From an uncultured Bacteroidales bacterium (GTDB lineage Bacteria > Bacteroidota > Bacteroidia > Bacteroidales > UBA10428), in the NCBI GenBank assembly GCA_964618645.1, contig CAZUBW010000005.1, positions 15,870 through 79,869 of the forward strand: a stretch of DNA of 64,000 nucleotides, read 5' to 3'. Of the stretch, positions 21,830 through 28,323 are shown piece after piece. The notes beneath the pieces are model-generated. The model did not search any database, was not told where the DNA came from, and saw only the letters and a program-made list of their open reading frames with translations. The position numbers were made by a program, and so were the translations under genes. Position 1 is the first letter of the stretch. Each line of letters begins with the position of its first letter.

Positions 21830-22049
21830 TTAACATTTACGGGGTTTAATACCTGGTTTGAATTACGAAAGTATAACAAAAACCAGCGTGAGTTGTTTGT
21901 TGGAAGGTCCTAATAACCTGGGAATATGGCAGCATGCCAGTAAAAGCCAATTTCTTCGAAAATGGTTTTGTATTTGGTGCAAATCAGTGCTTTGCATGAG
22001 CCATTATTGACCTAAATGACCATGCTTTGCTAAGTGAATCCAAAAAGAT

Positions 22050-22088
22050 GTAAAAGAAAAATCCCCACTGATACCTGTGAGGATTTTT
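22050..22088 (-). terminator. Intrinsic terminator after the tRNA
   Basis: Minus strand: AAAAAUCCUCAC-AGGUAUC-AGUGGGGAUUUUU followed by CUUUUAC. The stem has one G.U pair. Confidence 0.65.
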
Positions 22089-22091
22089 GAG

Positions 22092-22164
<73 letters not shown>

Positions 22165-22176
22165 ATATTAGGAGGG

Positions 22177-22184
22177 CAAAGATA
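22177..22184 (-). promoter_or_regulatory. Candidate Bacteroidota -7 promoter box (TATCTTTG) for the tRNA
   Basis: Matches the TAnnTTTG consensus of Bacteroidota primary-sigma promoters. It lies 12 nt upstream of the mature tRNA 5' end. Confidence 0.45.
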
Positions 22185-22434
22185 CGCTAATTTTTTATCA
22201 GAAAAAAATTGTTTTGTAATAAAAACACATATTCATTAAATGTATCTGTGGCGAAAGGGCATACAATACCCACATCTGTTTTATTCAGTGTAGTTTTCTA
22301 AAAATTGCCCGGGTTTGTATTTTTCGTGAGGCCATTTTTCAACATATATGTAGAATATATGCCATTGGGGGATTGTATTTTACAGAAATAGCCTAAATTT
22401 GGTATGAATAGGTAAAAAATGTTTGTTGGTAATA

Positions 22435-22944
22435 ATGACCTTATATCGCAATAAATACCGTGTTGAAACCACCCGTCTGCAAAATTGGGACTATGCATCA
22501 GATGGCAGATATTACATTACCATATGCACCAAAAAACGTGAACAATTTCTGGGAAAAATTGAAAAGGGTGTAATGATATTGAACAAACGTGGACGAATTG
22601 TTGAACAATGTTGGTTTGATCTGGAAAAACATTACCATAATTTACGATTGGACGCATTCGTAATTATGCCAAATCATATTCATGGAATAATGATCATTGA
22701 CAATTCCACCATCGTAGAGACGGGTTTCAAACCCGTCTCTACCCACGGGATATTTGAATTCGTGCGTGCATTCAAAACATTTTCATCGCGGCGGATAAAT
22801 GAATTGGATAATACCCCAGGCAGAACACGATGGCAATCTCGATTTCACGACCACATCATTCGGTATGAACGGGAATTCATCAGAATTCAACAATATATAC
22901 GTGACAACCCATTGTCATGGGAAAATGATTCTATGAATTCCTAA
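22435..22944 (+). CDS. REP-associated tyrosine transposase (RAYT; IS200/IS605 Y1 HUH family, COG1943-like)
   Basis: 169 aa from the ATG at 22435. YRNKYRVETTRLQNWDYASDGRYYITICTK, HUH motif MPNHIHGIMII, C-terminal WQSRFHDHIIR and tyrosine helix IQQYIRDNP. Confidence 0.85.
   Translation: MTLYRNKYRVETTRLQNWDYASDGRYYITICTKKREQFLGKIEKGVMILNKRGRIVEQCWFDLEKHYHNLRLDAFVIMPNHIHGIMIIDNSTIVETGFKPVSTHGIFEFVRAFKTFSSRRINELDNTPGRTRWQSRFHDHIIRYEREFIRIQQYIRDNPLSWENDSMNS
22714..22742. repeat. Perfect 11-bp-stem palindrome inside the RAYT ORF (GTAGAGACGGG-TTTCAAA-CCCGTCTCTAC)
   Basis: Read directly. It encodes VETGFKPVST between the HUH and Tyr motifs and starts with GTAG. Confidence 0.95.
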
Positions 22945-22947
22945 TTT

Positions 22948-22970
22948 CTGCCCCCGCTACTAAAAACCCC
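22948..22970. repeat. Inverted copy of the tRNA-fMet 3' end and trailer
   Basis: CTGCCCCCGCTACTAAAAACCCC is the reverse complement (20/23, with a perfect 14-bp core AGTAGCGGGGGCAG) of 22081..22103, which is the tRNA 3' acceptor/T-stem plus trailer. It starts 4 nt after the RAYT stop. Confidence 0.85.
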
Positions 22971-22994
22971 TTGAGGACTTAATTCAGAAAAGAA

Positions 22995-24164
22995 TTACCC
23001 CTTTATAACCGCCAAAGGCGTTAATTCGACTACAATGTCTACCAGATCCTGCTGGTTTTTCATTACGATATCGATGTCCTTATACGCACCAGGCGCTTCG
23101 TCCAGGTCTTTTCTGTTTCGAATGGCATGTATGATATGTTGTTTATCCAGTCGTGCTATCTCCTCTTCCAGGCTTAAGGTGTTCTGAGCCATGGTTCTGC
23201 TTAAAGCCCTGCCTGCACCGTGGGAGCAGCTTTCAAAGCTCTCGGGGTTCCCTTTGCCTTTCACAATATAGCTTTTTGTGCCCTGTGAACCCGGTATAAT
23301 CCCGATTTCATCCAGCTTTGCACTTGTAGCACCTTTACGGTGCACAAGTACACTGTTGTTAAAATGGTTCTCCCAACGTGCATAGTTGTGCGCAATATTT
23401 ACAAAGTCCAGTTCAGCAAAATCTCCGCCCATTTCGGCTGTGAAAGAAGCCTTGATGTTTTCCATCATCAGCTTTCTGCTGGCAAAAGCAAAATCCACAC
23501 AGTATTGCATCTCTGTCATATAATCTTTAGCATCTTGCGACTCAATGGGCAGGAAAGCCAATTGCCATTTCGAAGATATTTGGGAATACCACCTTTCATT
23601 CAGCCTGACAGCAACCTGATTGTAATGTTCTGCAACCTTTAAACCAATATTCCGGCTACCGGAATGGATCATGATCCAGATATGACCATCAGAGCCTTTC
23701 TGAATTTCAATGAAGTGATTACCGCCACCCAGCGTTCCTACCTGTTTTAAGGATGCTTCATACTGCCTTTCAACAATTCCACCTTTTATTATATTTCCGG
23801 AATCGGGCATCAATGATTCATTTTGTTTTTCATTGTGGTGATTGAATCCTACCGGCACTTTATGGCGGATTTCACTCATTACTTTTTTCAAAACAGGTGT
23901 TTCGATAGTTGTCAGAGATGTCTTTAAGGCACACATGCCGCATCCGATATCCACACCCACAGCATTCGGAACAATTACGCCACGGGTAGCCAGTACACCT
24001 CCTATAGGCATTCCATAGCCCTGGTGACTGTCGGGCATAATGGCAATATGCCTGAATGCAAAAGGCAGGTTGGCCATATTTTTCGCCTGTTCCAAAGCAC
24101 CTGCTTCTATATCTTCAATCCAGAGTTTAATAGGGATTTTTTCTGTATTGATAATCTGTTTCAT
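22995..24164 (-). CDS. rtcB: RNA 3'-phosphate/2',3'-cyclic phosphate--5'-OH ligase RtcB
   Basis: 389 aa. MPDSHQGYGMPIGGV, GGGNHFIEIQ, HSGSRNIG, nucleophile-His block SCSHGAGR. Confidence 0.93.
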   Translation of the reverse strand: MKQIINTEKIPIKLWIEDIEAGALEQAKNMANLPFAFRHIAIMPDSHQGYGMPIGGVLATRGVIVPNAVGVDIGCGMCALKTSLTTIETPVLKKVMSEIRHKVPVGFNHHNEKQNESLMPDSGNIIKGGIVERQYEASLKQVGTLGGGNHFIEIQKGSDGHIWIMIHSGSRNIGLKVAEHYNQVAVRLNERWYSQISSKWQLAFLPIESQDAKDYMTEMQYCVDFAFASRKLMMENIKASFTAEMGGDFAELDFVNIAHNYARWENHFNNSVLVHRKGATSAKLDEIGIIPGSQGTKSYIVKGKGNPESFESCSHGAGRALSRTMAQNTLSLEEEIARLDKQHIIHAIRNRKDLDEAPGAYKDIDIVMKNQQDLVDIVVELTPLAVIKG

Positions 24165-24243
24165 CTGGTTAATTTCTGGTTTTCATAAACACTACAAGTT
24201 CTGCTTGCAGTTCTTAGTACTTTTCTGCTTGGATAACAAAGGT

Positions 24244-24275
24244 ATAAGACTTTGCCATTTGTGGCAAAGTCTTAT
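24244..24275 (-). terminator. Strong intercistronic hairpin between the slipin stop and the rtcB start (possible attenuator or processing site)
   Basis: A 14-bp perfect stem ATAAGACTTTGCCA-(4-nt loop)-TGGCAAAGTCTTAT starts 2 nt after the slipin stop. On the minus strand it is followed only by a weak U-rich tract (ACCUUUGUU). Confidence 0.4.
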
Positions 24276-24276
24276 T

Positions 24277-25377
24277 TTACCTGGAAGTCGAGAAGATTTC
24301 TTTCAATTGGGTAAGAACCTGGTTGCCCCCGGATAATGAAATGCTATTGATTTTATCTGCGATTTTTTCAATATATTCCATTTCTTTCAGTTTGAACAAC
24401 ATTTCGTTCTCCTCCAAAATTTTCGCTGTATTCAATAAACTTCTTGTAGAAGCAGTTTCTTCTCTTCTGGTTATAATATTGGCCTGAGCCTTTTTCTGTG
24501 CAATCAAAACCTGGTTCATGATATCTTTTACCTCGCCAGGTAAAACAATATCTCTTATTCCACAGTCTCTAATTTCTAAGCCAAGTTCAGCTGCTTTTCC
24601 CCTTAAAGATTCCATTACATATTTTGAGATAGATTCTTTCTTTTCGAGGATTTCATCCAAGGTTAATGTGCCAATGAATTCTCTTAAAGCTAATTGCATT
24701 AAAACATACAATTGCTTTTCATAATCCTTGTTTTCATTAATAGCCTTGACGATATCAACTACTTTGTATTGCGTGTAAAAATTAACTCTTAATGCAGCTT
24801 TATCTCTTGTCAGAATTTCCTGACCTGAGATTTCAAGTTGCAATTGCCTCATATCAGCCTTTGCAACATGAATTTTAGTTGCATTTTTCCAGTAATAATA
24901 CTCACCTGTTTCAATGGTCTTCTCGTATTTACCATCAATAAATAAGAGGGCCTTTTGATATGGTTCAACGGCAATTGTCCTTATATATGGGGCCAACTCT
25001 GGTCTCAGTAAAGTGTTCTTATCGATTTTTTCAGTAATCTCGAATTTATTCAAGTCCACATTAATGAAAGAATAGGTTGTTAAACCCTTCCAGAAGGTGT
25101 GTCTTCCTGGTGAAAGAATAGTTTTAAAGTTGCCATTTTCATACTGTAAGGCAATCTCATTATCACCCACTTCAACAACATGCAAATGTCTTGTCAATTC
25201 TTCATCCTTCAAAAGAATATTTAATTCTATTGTAGGATAGAACGGCTTGGCTAAATCATAAAGGAAAACCTTCTTGTTAGGGGTTATCCAATAGATTCCA
25301 TCGGTCAGCAATTTTTTGTAATTACCGCGTTTAAATACTAAACCAATTTTTCCTTTGTTCACAATAACTCGTTTCAT
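24277..25377 (-). CDS. SPFH/band-7 (slipin-like) protein without an obvious membrane anchor
   Basis: 366 aa. N-terminal ~170-aa beta-rich region, then an SPFH core (ISGQEILTRDKAALRVNFYTQYKVVD ... IRDCGIRDIVLPGEVKDIMNQVLIAQKKAQANIITRREETA) and a coiled-coil tail. Confidence 0.8.
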   Translation of the reverse strand: MKRVIVNKGKIGLVFKRGNYKKLLTDGIYWITPNKKVFLYDLAKPFYPTIELNILLKDEELTRHLHVVEVGDNEIALQYENGNFKTILSPGRHTFWKGLTTYSFINVDLNKFEITEKIDKNTLLRPELAPYIRTIAVEPYQKALLFIDGKYEKTIETGEYYYWKNATKIHVAKADMRQLQLEISGQEILTRDKAALRVNFYTQYKVVDIVKAINENKDYEKQLYVLMQLALREFIGTLTLDEILEKKESISKYVMESLRGKAAELGLEIRDCGIRDIVLPGEVKDIMNQVLIAQKKAQANIITRREETASTRSLLNTAKILEENEMLFKLKEMEYIEKIADKINSISLSGGNQVLTQLKEIFSTSR

Positions 25378-25761
25378 CTGATTAAATTTTAATTAAGCTG
25401 TCAAATGCAGCTTGTCCTTTCGGACTCGGTTTGAACTAATTGATAAGGTTGATAAATCAACAATAGAAAGCAGGTAAAGTAAAACCATCCTTTTTTTATG
25501 CGGAAATTCGATTAAGTAGTGCAAGTCCTTAAAGCCGCTAACATCAATAATCTGTAACAATTTGACCTAATATTATTAATGGCAGTTTGTTTAATTCTTT
25601 GCATAACTGGATCCTCAGTTTTCAAAGCATTAAAAGGACTGTTATTTAGCTCTTTAGTGATTCAAACAGGTTTGAAGAGAGAGCCAAAAACAAGTTTTGC
25701 TTTACCATGCTTTCAGGCGACAATTTTTACAAGTTGTCAGCTTAAGTTTGGATTTTTAAGT

Positions 25762-25890
25762 CCATTCCCGTGACAGGGGAGTGTAGGACTCGAACCTACT
25801 CGCCATGAGGCTTACCAATTGTTTGTTGCTCTAACCTGCTGAGCTATCCTAGAAGGTTTAGGAGAGGGAGTCGAACCCCCGACACACAAA
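25762..25890 (-). ncRNA. Candidate tRNA-like (circularly permuted, YrlA/Y-RNA-like) non-coding RNA; true ends unknown, possibly about 25700..25930
   Basis: Minus strand: TTTGT-GTGTC-GGGGG-TTCGACT-CCCTC-TCCTA-AACCTTC-TAGGA-TA-GCTC-AGCAGGTTA-GAGC-A-ACAAA. This reads as anticodon-stem 3' strand, variable loop, T-arm with canonical TTCGA loop, 5-bp acceptor-like stem capped by a 7-nt loop, U8-like TA, D-arm with a GG loop, and anticodon-stem 5' strand pairing back to TTTGT. A second T-arm (GTAGG-TTCGAGT-CCTAC) plus a capped stem (TCCC-CTGTCAC-GGGA) follows at 25799..25762. There is no ORF, and it has the same orientation as slipin-rtcB. Confidence 0.5.
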
Positions 25891-26101
25891 TGCGGGCGAA
25901 AACAAGCAAAAGGCAAAGCAGCATATTAAACCACAGTGTGAAGTAATACTATGAAGCCATTCAGAGACTTTCATCAGGTCCTGGCCTTTCTGTTTTTCCC
26001 ACTCTTCCGGTTAAGGAAGACTTTTTTCCCGAAAGCATCGGGAGATATTTTAGTTCAAAGAACGATTAACCTTTCAAATACGTGACAAAGATTATACATA
26101 A

Positions 26102-26123
26102 CTGCGCAATCAATATGCGTAGT
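26102..26123. promoter_or_regulatory. Operator-like inverted repeat in the divergent WYL/ncRNA control region
   Basis: CTGCGCA-atcaata-TGCGTAG. The half sites are CTGCGCA and CTACGCA, matching 6/7. It lies 29 nt upstream of the WYL start codon. Confidence 0.35.
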
Positions 26124-26136
26124 TGATTATTTTTTT

Positions 26137-26144
26137 TATTTTTG
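26137..26144 (+). promoter_or_regulatory. Candidate -7 box TATTTTTG for the WYL regulator gene (would give a leaderless or very short-leader mRNA)
   Basis: Exact TAnnTTTG match ending 7 nt before the ATG at 26152. Confidence 0.35.
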
Positions 26145-26151
26145 ATAAAAA

Positions 26152-27177
26152 ATGCCTTTAAATAAGAATGCACTTATACGATATAAGACTATTGATAAGT
26201 GTTTACAAAATCGCTACAGACGATGGACACTCGAAGATTTAATTGATGCATGCTCGGATGCCTTATATGAATACGAAGGGATTAATTGCAGTATTGGGAA
26301 AAGGACTATTCAGGCTGACATCCAATTAATGCGAAGTGATAAACTTGGCTATAACGCACCCATAAAAGTTACGGACAGAAAGTATTACATTTATGAAGAT
26401 CCGGATTACACTATAACAAATATCCCGCTTACGGAACAAGACTTAAACAAATTGACTGAAGTTACAGAGATACTTAAGCAGTTTAAAGGATTTTCACATT
26501 TTGGTGAGCTAAGTGTCATGGTTCAAAAACTTGAGGATAAGGTTTATGCTGAAAGAGAAAAACAAAAGCCCGTTATTGATATTGAAAAGAATGAGAATCT
26601 CAAAGGACTGGAATACCTGGAAGTTCTGTATCAGTCTATTTTAAAGAAACAAGTTTTAAATATATGGTATCAGTCGTTTAAAGCAAGAAAGTCAGGTAAA
26701 ATAGTTCTCCATCCTTATTTGCTGAAAGAATACCGGAATCGGTGGTTTATTCTAGGAAGAAAGGGCGCCCAGCAACCTATAATAACTTTAGCTCTTGATA
26801 GAATTTATGAAATTGCGCAGAATACTGAGGTTGTCTTTATAGGAGACGAAAAATTTAACCCTGATGAATATTACCGAGATGTTATTGGCGTGACTGTTAA
26901 TAGTAACCGGCCAACCAATATACATCTTTTTGTCGATAGAGAGAACGCGCCTTACATACTTACCAAACCACTGCATCATTCACAGCAAGTGATATCGGAA
27001 ACAGCGAATGGTCTTGAAGTAGTAATAAAGGTGATACCCAATTTTGAACTAGAGAGGGAGATTCTTGGTTTTGGTGAAAGTATACAAGTAATATCTCCTC
27101 TTAAGTTTAGCGTAAGAATACAACAGCGACTACAACAAGCAATTAGTAATTATGCACAAAATAGCAAGTCAATTTAA
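26152..27177 (+). CDS. wHTH-WYL-domain transcriptional regulator
   Basis: 341 aa. N-terminus MPLNKNALIRYKTIDKCLQN..WTLEDLIDAC is typical of Bacteroidota WYL regulators. WYL core IVLHPYLLKEYRNRWFILGRK. C-terminal extension domain. Confidence 0.8.
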   Translation: MPLNKNALIRYKTIDKCLQNRYRRWTLEDLIDACSDALYEYEGINCSIGKRTIQADIQLMRSDKLGYNAPIKVTDRKYYIYEDPDYTITNIPLTEQDLNKLTEVTEILKQFKGFSHFGELSVMVQKLEDKVYAEREKQKPVIDIEKNENLKGLEYLEVLYQSILKKQVLNIWYQSFKARKSGKIVLHPYLLKEYRNRWFILGRKGAQQPIITLALDRIYEIAQNTEVVFIGDEKFNPDEYYRDVIGVTVNSNRPTNIHLFVDRENAPYILTKPLHHSQQVISETANGLEVVIKVIPNFELEREILGFGESIQVISPLKFSVRIQQRLQQAISNYAQNSKSI

Positions 27178-27465
27178 TTTTTATTTAAATGAAGTTAAGC
27201 CGATGATTATCAATTTTTTCAGGGGTCAGACCAAATTATTAATCATGTATTCAATCAAATAGGCTCAATTTCAGCCCTGATTTGGCGCTTAGCAATTATT
27301 TTTTTCCTATTTTTTGGCCTGCTAAGATTCAGCCGCTGAGGATAAGAAACGCGAACTTCGAAAAATCATGACTCCTCGTCTGATAGCAGGTATTTCCTTG
27401 CCATTTGTACCAAAGACCGTGTATCATTTCCGGGAAAATAATCTGTTAAAATCCTGATGTTTTGT

Positions 27466-28323
27466 TTACATCGTCAGAGGGCCTTTCAACCTTGCTGCCA
27501 TAATCCCCGGGCAGGTGGATTTGTTGCGGAGCATTTCGAACAGGGTAACCTCAGAGATCTCCACTTTTTTGCTCAGCGAGGAGGCATGCATCAGATGCAG
27601 TTCCGAATTTACATGAACGGCTATCCCCACATGCGACACATCCAGCCCGTCAATGGACGTCACCAGGGCTACCAGGTCGCCATCTTTAATTTTATCCCCG
27701 GTCAGCAGTAATTCCTCTTTTGGCAGGTAATGCAGTTGCAGGGAACTGAGTCTTTCTTCTGCCTTTTTCACAGCCAACAGGGAACTATCCTCCTGCAGAT
27801 GCGGATATTTTGCCCTGTTTGCGGTCATTATCTGTATTTTTTTTGTAAAGGCCTTTCCGCCGATATTTGCCGTAATCGGCTCAAGGATGCCTTTCTGTGC
27901 ATTGTTCTGAATCCACTCTGAGAAATAGTGCAACCGCGATGCATAGCCATTCATTACACCATCGCGGTAACGAATGAATTGCAATTCGTGGCAAAAGTCA
28001 TCGAATTGTGTGTTGCCTTTTTGAATGGTCATCGACAAGGCAACCACACTCTCCAGGAATGTAACACAATCAAGCCGCGATAAATCCACCACCAGTTTCT
28101 CGATTTCCGGCTTGTCCAGCACACCTCCGACATACGGGGTATTTAACAATTGTTTGCCCACATGAAGGACAATGCTGCCTATGGCTGAATCGGACAAATG
28201 GGTTTTCTTTGCCTCATCCATGACAGTATTGAATACCTGAACATCGTTTGGCGCATATAAAACCTGGGCGATCAGCGGAAACGAAAGCTGCAGTGAAAAG
28301 ATCAGTGTCAGGATTGTTTTCAT
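27466..28323 (-). CDS. DUF1460 (amidase-like) secreted protein
   Basis: 285 aa. Signal peptide, then TPYVGGVLDKPEIEKLVVDLSRLDCVTFLESVVAL and HVGIAV, typical of DUF1460 as I remember it. Confidence 0.55.
   Translation of the reverse strand: MKTILTLIFSLQLSFPLIAQVLYAPNDVQVFNTVMDEAKKTHLSDSAIGSIVLHVGKQLLNTPYVGGVLDKPEIEKLVVDLSRLDCVTFLESVVALSMTIQKGNTQFDDFCHELQFIRYRDGVMNGYASRLHYFSEWIQNNAQKGILEPITANIGGKAFTKKIQIMTANRAKYPHLQEDSSLLAVKKAEERLSSLQLHYLPKEELLLTGDKIKDGDLVALVTSIDGLDVSHVGIAVHVNSELHLMHASSLSKKVEISEVTLFEMLRNKSTCPGIMAARLKGPLTM

Follow-up and report, generated by a model that had tools for sequence, protein, structure and literature searches.

What kind of RNA is encoded by a transfer RNA (tRNA)-like element that lies upstream of the genes for an SPFH/Band-7 protein and the RNA ligase RtcB in an uncultured Bacteroidales bacterium? 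The element occupies the minus strand of the DNA analysed here, a 64,000-nucleotide (nt) stretch of contig CAZUBW010000005.1 (assembly GCA_964618645.1, positions 15,870 to 79,869), which we call the window and number from its first letter. We find that it is very probably the tRNA-like core of an RNA of about 600 nt that leads the SPFH/RtcB operon, with a putative promoter by a putative WYL site, and that forms the Band-7 counterpart of Rsr/YrlA, within a class predicted by Burroughs and Aravind as that prediction is summarized in bioRxiv 10.1101/312249.

Read on the minus strand, positions 25822-25890 contain a complete, circularly permuted tRNA body (module 1). It opens with the 5′ strand of a closing, anticodon-like stem (TTTGT, 25890-25886) and continues through a 5-nt variable loop (GTGTC, 25885-25881), a T-arm with one G.U pair (GGGGG-TTCGACT-CCCTC, 25880-25864), an acceptor of 5 base pairs (bp) capped by a loop (TCCTA-AACCTTC-TAGGA, 25863-25847), the U8-A9 dinucleotide (TA, 25846-25845), a D-arm (GCTC-AGCAGGTTA-GAGC, 25844-25828) and A26 (A, 25827), before returning to the 3′ strand of the closing stem (ACAAA, 25826-25822); no anticodon loop is seen in this reading. 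The initial annotation, which had been made from the letters of the DNA, listed these elements together with a second T-arm and capped stem, and every one of them is present. Module 1 is an L-shaped tRNA body with its acceptor end sealed by a short loop, and we show here that, in place of its anticodon stem, a helix connects the body to a larger RNA.

A covariance model, R1, for which six modules of equal length from other genomes were given the proposed structure, scores 59.9 bits (E 1.9e-14) at 25822-25890 of the window, its sole match in the 64 kilobases (kb) on both strands and one far beyond chance. Conventional tools are silent here: Rfam at gathering thresholds reports nothing at the module region, and ARAGORN, which had been expected to fail or to call a pseudogene, reports no tRNA and no transfer-messenger RNA (tmRNA) there. 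The single-sequence minimum free energy fold of 25690-25935 is likewise ordinary (z = -0.93), and support for the proposed fold is therefore drawn from comparative data, which do bear it out, and not from thermodynamics.

The SPFH protein has thousands of close relatives, and a scan of one genome per species yielded 80 loci, all from Bacteroidota (Bacteroidales, Cytophagales, Chitinophagales, Flavobacteriales and Saprospiraceae). Nearly all of these carry one to four copies of the T-loop motif GGTTCRANYC at 300-750 nt upstream of the SPFH gene, and a simple parser finds the permuted architecture in relatives whose stem sequences are quite different. The R1 model matches these loci 143 times, every time on the SPFH strand, and at least one module lies no more than 900 nt upstream of SPFH in 74 of the 76 loci with enough upstream sequence (one module in 38, two in 31 and three in 5); relatives carry zero to three modules beyond module 1. 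In the resulting alignment, 94% of cells are paired, against 65% after shuffling and about 47% with slid partners; changes on both sides are seen in 19 of 20 pairs, and all four helices covary. Substitutions in homologous loci therefore compensate rather than break the T, D, acceptor and closing stems.

As the R1 alignment leans towards the structure of the model, two checks that are independent of it matter, of which the first concerns the nucleotides that hold the tertiary fold of a tRNA. U8, A14, U54-U55-C56, A58 and the G53-C61 pair are conserved in 100% of the modules, followed by G18 (99%), A21 (98%), A26 (90%) and G46 (85%). The Levitt pair R15-Y48, which is absent from the R1 model and so is not imposed by it, also covaries, with 73 G-C, 21 A-U and about 2 discordant combinations (Fisher p = 6e-19, uncorrected for relatedness). 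The acceptor caps have loops of 2-10 nt, mostly tetraloops, and begin with NCCA in only 3 of 100; being sealed and rarely NCCA, they leave a body that cannot be charged or carry a CCA end, as had been proposed from the window. The central claim of the initial annotation, that module 1 is a tRNA mimic, circularly permuted and non-chargeable, which shares its topology with the YrlA tRNA-like domain, is upheld by the model score, the four covarying stems and the near-invariant tertiary nucleotides. A few caps read ACCA directly after the 3′ acceptor strand (for example, 2890-2898 in locus L001 and about 3084-3087 in L017), a hint that they descend from tandem copies of a single tRNA gene.

How far does the RNA extend? 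Conserved structure spans from about 26063 to about 25466 on the minus strand, about 600 nt in all, its conserved blocks running from just past the promoter-like region to shortly before the SPFH start; the ends had been placed near 25925 and 25700. For an alignment of 22 leaders made with MAFFT from sequence only (A3), RNAalifold returned a multi-domain structure in which the 73 pairs tested have 90.9% of cells paired, against about 45% with slid partners and 77% after shuffling, and in which 54 of the 73 show compensatory changes. The 5′ end region (26004-26063; helix 1, 82% paired) comprises GUUCUUUGAAC (26063-26053), hairpin P1 (26043-26027) and hairpin P2 (CUUCC-UUAACC-GGAAG, 26019-26004). 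It is followed by a 5′ domain (25918-25978; helices 2-4, 90-99% paired, with invariant columns in A3) that contains a box-C-like CCUGAUGA (25978-25971), a covarying hairpin (25970-25954), a CAUAGU...hairpin...AUAUG element and an AUGCUGC stretch (25924-25918), the final six bases of which, UGCUGC, are invariant; the box-C-like sequence and AUGCUGC could form a k-turn-like motif, a tertiary contact or a protein site. A candidate pairing of GUUUUC with GAAAAC ahead of module 1 was not significant.

Beyond the modules lies a conserved and covarying H-type pseudoknot (AAG-C-UGACAA-CUU-GUAAAAA-UUGUC, 25719-25743), with AAG/CUU as stem 1 and GACAA/UUGUC as stem 2; its helices 10-12 are 93%, 80% and 64% paired, and 5 of 9 pairs change on both sides. 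Next comes a long-range helix of about 20 bp between GAAAGCAUGGUAAAGCAAAAC (25694-25714) and GGUUUUACUUUACCUGCUUUC (25466-25486), whose 3′ strand forms the 3′ edge of the conserved RNA and ends 89 nt before the SPFH start codon. In the window, RNAduplex gives this helix -23.7 kcal/mol (z = -5.3); it is significant in 22 of 22 sequences (z -3.3 to -9.0) although these differ greatly, and 18 of its 20 pairs show compensatory changes. The spacer between this helix and the SPFH start codon ranges from about 35 to more than 200 nt among loci. At the very 3′ end, CUUUC(U) (25466-25471) has two rival partners, GAAAG at the base of the long helix (25709-25714) and a 5′ GGAAA (about 25990-25998); both pairings, GAAAG/CUUUC and the GGAAA/CUUUCU of RNAalifold, are conserved in sequence and neither has decisive covariation, and the arrangement is possibly an alternative-pairing switch.

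These results displace two outer closing helices proposed earlier. One of them, TGCTTTGCC/GGTAAAGCA, is favourable in the window only (z = -3.0) and near zero in the other 21 sequences, and GGTAAAGCA belongs instead to the 20-bp helix with 25486-25466. The other, TCGCC/GGCGA, is missing from L001 and L003, among the closest relatives, and clashes with the pseudoknot, which its downstream copy overlaps. The initial annotation is thus partly supported: its core holds and its periphery does not.

Between module 1 and the pseudoknot, a linker of CAAUUGGUAAGCCUCAUGGCGA (25800-25821), which includes GGCGA and resembles the linker of L003 only, leads into a degenerate module 2 (25749-25799). This consists, as described before, of a T-arm (GTAGG-TTCGAGT-CCTAC, 25799-25783) and a capped 4-bp acceptor (TCCC-CTGTCAC-GGGA, 25780-25766), directly after which comes a hairpin, TGGA-CTTAAAAA-TCCA (25764-25749; as RNA, UGGA-CUUAAAAA-UCCA). 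The hairpin had been taken for a weak D-arm; it is an anticodon-arm mimic, kept in at least 59 relatives, and the D-arm is missing. The close relatives L001 and L004 make this plain: their module 2 is a complete permuted tRNA, followed by one base and then by a hairpin (5-bp stem, 7-nt loop) that closely resembles an anticodon arm, so the module 2 of the window has lost its D-arm. In the window the loop has 8 nt and not 7, with an ‘anticodon’ UAA and one extra A. As loci L007 and L015 retain the hairpin without any module 2, the RNA has two constant parts, module 1 and the anticodon-arm mimic, to which further modules are optional additions.

Across the at least 59 loci that have it, the hairpin lies about 50-80 nt past the last T-loop. 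U33 and a purine at 37 are kept in 59 loci, but since both served as filters they carry no independent weight. About 30 different triplets occur at 34-36, frequently with the stem unchanged (ATGGA/TCCAT, 18 times), and the remaining loop positions follow the rules of real tRNAs: G36 goes with G37 in 13 of 15 cases and A or U at 36 with A37 in 44 of 47 (p = 3e-9), and U32 accompanies G37 (p = 2e-8). Loops that keep these rules while their triplets vary suggest selection to mimic particular tRNAs, not drift. About one third of the triplets (GUU, GUA, GUC, GUG, UUU and CAU) are classical targets of anticodon nucleases, a proportion uncorrected for relatedness; the comparison rests on colicin E5, PrrC and VapC. 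The loop has no evident partner inside the RNA: for an internal ‘codon’, the best aligned column triple is complementary in just 36% of sequences, and with no covarying internal partner the loop is probably unpaired and free for recognition in trans.

Which known RNA, if any, does this resemble most? In a permissive Rfam scan of 25300-26300, YrlA (RF02553) was the best family, as had been anticipated, at 25796-25900 on the minus strand (35.8 bits, E 6e-6), but this score lies below the gathering score of 69, as do those of eight relatives (31-47 bits), and at that threshold neither the window nor 18 loci gave a YrlA match. The model matches through the tRNA-like core only (model positions about 23-85 in relatives), and in the window its positions 13-19 and 92-98, the Rsr-binding helix, are deleted or mismatched; the flanks of the module pair elsewhere in the large RNA, without forming an Rsr-binding stem. 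The RNA is YrlA-like in topology and not a Y RNA by membership, as it has neither this stem nor an rsr gene alongside. Chen et al. (2014, PMC4201824) defined YrlA itself as a Y RNA that mimics tRNA and lies no more than 4 kb from rsr, and warned of artefacts from tandem tRNAs; it is carried in rsr-yrlBA-rtcBA operons (PMC4201824; bioRxiv 10.1101/312249). The two share the permuted T-arm, capped acceptor and D-arm, an anticodon stem continued into another helix, the same conserved tertiary nucleotides, an operon with rtcB and, often, more than one copy. YrlA, at about 110 nt, is a free RNA, however, whereas the module of the window sits in an RNA of about 600 nt that also has a pseudoknot, an anticodon-arm mimic and long-range helices, and whose partner is SPFH/Band-7 and regulator WYL, where YrlA operons have RtcR/sigma-54.

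A closer parallel in genomic context is the ‘band 7-associated tRNA’, or b7a-tRNA, which, according to the summary in bioRxiv 10.1101/312249, Burroughs and Aravind (2016) predicted beside RtcB and Band-7, along with an occasional YrlA adjoining Band-7; by the same summary (Wang et al. 2018), the class was without experimental validation as of 2018. Our search of the literature on b7a-tRNA found nothing beyond that preprint. The window has the adjacency to SPFH and rtcB and the tRNA-like fold by which the summary describes the class, and the two share the combination of RtcB, Band-7 and a tRNA-like non-coding RNA proposed as the cognate RNA of a repair scaffold protein. The summarized b7a-tRNA strongly resembles authentic tRNA, whereas the constant element here is permuted, capped and embedded in the larger RNA. 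As far as that summary describes it, the window RNA is a member of the predicted class, and the larger RNA of about 600 nt is absent from Rfam; the other parts of the RNA match no Rfam family in the window or in the relatives searched. The Pseudomonas aeruginosa rtc locus also contains an SPFH gene (PMC13086221).

Other comparisons are looser. Module 1 shares with canonical tRNA (RF00005) the T-loop, the GG of the D-loop, U8, A14, R15-Y48, G53-C61 and the 5-nt variable loop, and the anticodon-loop rules hold in the accessory hairpin, but the module is permuted, its acceptor is sealed, and it has no CCA and no anticodon loop. The Rfam tRNA model gives 20 bits for a chimeric reading of the window, which is not called, and in relatives the module 2 region weakly passes the tRNA threshold (29-38 bits). 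Like the window RNA, tmRNA combines a tRNA-like element with pseudoknots, and two-piece tmRNA is also permuted in gene order, but the window RNA has no free acceptor or CCA and no tag reading frame; ARAGORN calls no tmRNA, and the Rfam match is an 18-nt T-arm alone (13 bits). ROOL, GOLLD and OLE are also RNAs of several hundred nucleotides with many covarying helices and pseudoknots, and ROOL and GOLLD often lie beside tRNA genes. The window RNA matches none of their Rfam models and differs in containing tRNA mimics and in its fixed position before SPFH-rtcB.

What, then, might the RNA do? The best overall explanation, which we regard as probably correct, joins this identity to a role as a protein-binding tRNA mimic for SPFH-RtcB repair; the more specific idea of a Y-RNA-like cofactor or scaffold, drawn by analogy, has an even chance at best. 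Under this scheme, the WYL regulator would respond to damage, so that the RNA would be made together with SPFH and RtcB. By analogy with YrlA and Y RNAs, it may then bind proteins, presenting its tRNA bodies and a realistic anticodon loop to those that recognise tRNA, and may anchor or arrange the SPFH oligomer and RtcB on broken substrates that resemble tRNA. A scaffold is favoured because the RNA is large and complex, because YrlA offers a precedent and because the distance to the start codon is variable.

Several points weigh against this explanation. We infer the transcription start, the processing and any contact between RNA and protein alike. The AlphaFold2 model of the SPFH protein is poor (predicted local distance difference test (pLDDT) score 59.6) and offers no sign of an RNA-binding surface. 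The RNA is contiguous with the SPFH mRNA, and in many Cytophagales its 3′ helix ends only about 35 nt from the start codon, an arrangement that also fits a purely cis-regulatory leader. The hypervariable anticodon loops, with their obedience to tRNA rules, are left unexplained by a simple scaffold role, and the likeness to b7a-tRNA is judged from the summary in bioRxiv 10.1101/312249, not from annotated b7a-tRNA sequences.

It is these loops that make a rival function worth weighing, in which the leader is a sentinel or decoy whose tRNA mimic and anticodon arm bait nucleases that target tRNA at the anticodon. We consider this rather unlikely, although it best explains the combination of a hypervariable, rule-obeying anticodon mimic with a leader position. 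The element is the 5′ leader directly upstream of repair genes; its anticodon-arm hairpin displays some 30 ‘anticodons’, 18 times on one conserved stem, in loops that keep real tRNA rules and have no covarying internal partner, and about a third of these triplets are classical nuclease targets, an enrichment that is uncorrected for relatedness. Cleavage of the leader might free the SPFH-rtcB message from an inhibitory fold, or might yield fragments with 2′,3′-cyclic phosphates that are sensed by the WYL regulator; RtcB would re-seal the leader and so reset the switch. In a weaker version the RNA would simply soak up the nuclease as a competitive inhibitor. As precedents, tRNA halves that end in cyclic phosphates activate RtcR in Salmonella, and the YrlA tRNA-like domain has been put forward as a possible competitive inhibitor of the anticodon nuclease (PMC7790460). 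On the other hand, Salmonella YrlA is not cut by the RecA-dependent nuclease (PMC7790460), an architecture of about 600 nt with a pseudoknot and several long-range helices exceeds what a bait needs, the window loop has 8 nt rather than 7, and the variable spacer before the start codon makes a tight translational switch unlikely. A fuller form of the idea, which we regard as unlikely, is that the whole RNA is a self-reporting damage sensor whose tRNA bodies and anticodon mimic bait nucleases of phages, plasmids or competitors: cutting of the bait, or arrival of its cyclic-phosphate fragments at the WYL protein, would switch on the SPFH-RtcB operon, and re-ligation by RtcB would switch it off. 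Were this so, the variable ‘anticodons’ would record an arms race with nucleases of differing specificity. The scaffold and sentinel roles are compatible and not mutually exclusive.

Three other explanations fare worse. That it is a genuine YrlA-family Y RNA, binding an Rsr (Ro60) protein encoded elsewhere in the genome, is very improbable: YrlA is the best Rfam match and, with Rsr, often adjoins rtcB (PMC4201824; 10.1101/312249), but the score is half of the gathering threshold, only the tRNA-like core aligns in relatives, the module is embedded in a large RNA with its flanks paired elsewhere, and no TROVE domain was found near the locus, in the window’s open reading frames (ORFs) of 458-655 residues or among the sampled neighbours in relatives. 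According to Chen et al. (2014, PMC4201824), YrlA can be mimicked by dimeric tRNA genes; in several relatives, arrays of real tRNA genes are found just upstream of the leader, and a few acceptor caps read ACCA, all of which would suit a functionless relic at the junction of two decayed tandem tRNA genes. This reading is effectively refuted, and we give it almost no credence, since the topology is kept across orders of Bacteroidota with every stem and the closing helix compensated, the acceptors are capped, the position relative to SPFH is fixed, and no 5′ half lies upstream and no 3′ half downstream. We find it just as hard to credit a permuted tRNA gene of the type known from Cyanidioschyzon merolae, the transcript of which would be circularised by RtcB and re-opened into a functional tRNA. 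Its 3′ half does precede its 5′ half, an RNA ligase gene is adjacent and module 2 of relatives has a full anticodon arm; yet module 1 has no anticodon loop, the caps have neither discriminator and CCA nor an RNase P or Z leader or trailer, and the ‘anticodons’ vary freely among close relatives, unlike those of a decoding tRNA. Moreover, bacteria are not known to have the splicing endonuclease of the C. merolae pathway, which also counts against such a gene.

RtcB repair operons are widespread in bacteria, and their substrates and cofactors are largely unknown, Rsr/YrlA being the only RNA partner of such operons studied so far. Here, a form that lacks Rsr and is linked to Band-7 is conserved across a whole phylum with the complete three-dimensional core of tRNA kept, and that core is merely the centre of an ornate RNA of about 600 nt that Rfam does not contain. 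The locus offers handles on the role of tRNA mimics in RNA repair, on the ligand of WYL regulators and on whether soluble SPFH cages work with RNA, and the size and rigidity of the RNA make it a good target for cryo-electron microscopy.

The putative control region (26086-26123), recognized by eye from its motif pattern, lies on the minus strand just ahead of the conserved RNA. It contains a hexamer pair of the TGCGCA type, TACGCA-N7-TGCGCA (26123-26101), with a Bacteroidetes-type -7 box, AATCTTTG (26093-26086), directly after it; the consensus of this box is TAnnTTTG. By eye, many loci show hexamer pairs and boxes like these, and the strict pattern TGCGCA-N7-TGCGCA occurs in about 20 of 75. 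Judging from these motifs, transcription would start near 26080, and the WYL protein would bind the putative hexamer site at 26101-26123.

In the window, Pfam annotation gives the order WYL (divergent), RNA, SPFH and RtcB. The regulator (26152-27177, plus strand) has WYL and WCX domains (Pfam WYL, 1.1e-10, and WCX, 1.7e-8; PADLOC WYL), the SPFH/Band-7 protein (24277-25377, minus strand; Pfam Band_7, 1.9e-33) is a soluble, stomatin-like ‘slipin’ of 366 residues, and the RtcB ligase (22995-24164, minus strand; Pfam RtcB, 7.9e-112; NCBIfam RtcB family) has 389. The same order, at times with one to three genes between SPFH and RtcB, recurs across Bacteroidota loci, and the WYL regulator is divergent and upstream in most of them. 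PADLOC recognises the WYL protein alone, so a known defence system is not seen at the locus, and Pfam finds no TROVE/Rsr among the locus neighbours or in 11 window ORFs of 458-655 residues. A 64-codon ORF on the plus strand (25579-25773) overlaps the RNA on the opposite strand and is probably spurious, as RNA structure is what is conserved there.

Matches of the SPFH protein to stomatins in the PDB extend across residues 137-345, and are preceded by a β-rich N-terminal extension of 135 residues; no membrane segment is obvious. The AlphaFold2 model is better in this extension (pLDDT about 75-82) and poor across the SPFH part. Residues 1-135 (24970-25377) apparently consist of three tandem β-hairpin repeats of about 65 residues each, with conserved G27/W30, G91/W96 and G158/W163 recurring at the repeat spacing. 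A search for viral relatives of the protein found none, and near-identical DNA had no match in Escherichia coli genomes, plasmids or phages. The segment of about 22-28 kb has a G+C content of 36-41%, against about 47-52% over most of the remaining window, whose genes are ordinary chromosomal ones such as GlmS, GltX and glycosidases; the repair locus (22000-28000) looks horizontally acquired. It is flanked on one side by a tRNA-Met gene on the operon strand (22091-22164, minus strand; the sole call of ARAGORN and of Rfam at gathering thresholds) and an IS200/REP-associated tyrosine transposase gene (22423-22944, plus strand).

Among the neighbours in relatives are RlaP nucleotidyltransferases, TPR and HEAT proteins and a second RtcB, the RNA-repair ‘syntax’ that Burroughs and Aravind reportedly described. 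Downstream of SPFH, two loci (L047, 4691-6494, and L001, 4944-7964) have nucleotidyltransferases of the RlaP family (PF10127) as well as a second, longer RtcB paralogue, unlike the window, which has only the short RtcB type of 389 residues. In several relatives, between two and eight real tRNA genes (Tyr, Asp, Asn, Glu, Gln, Leu, Phe, Met and Ile) are arrayed directly upstream of the leader on the same strand (L021, 2200-2839; L046, 1032-1830; L050, 2165-2524; L065, 2609-2763; L009, 1766-1931); these might be a damage-inducible supply of spare tRNAs, or the ‘b7a-tRNA’ of the literature. The Saprospiraceae locus L055 has, besides three tandem modules in its leader, four more permuted modules up to 3 kb upstream (551-622, 1829-1900, 2096-2169 and 2423-2529), with real tRNA-Glu and tRNA-Asp genes between them.

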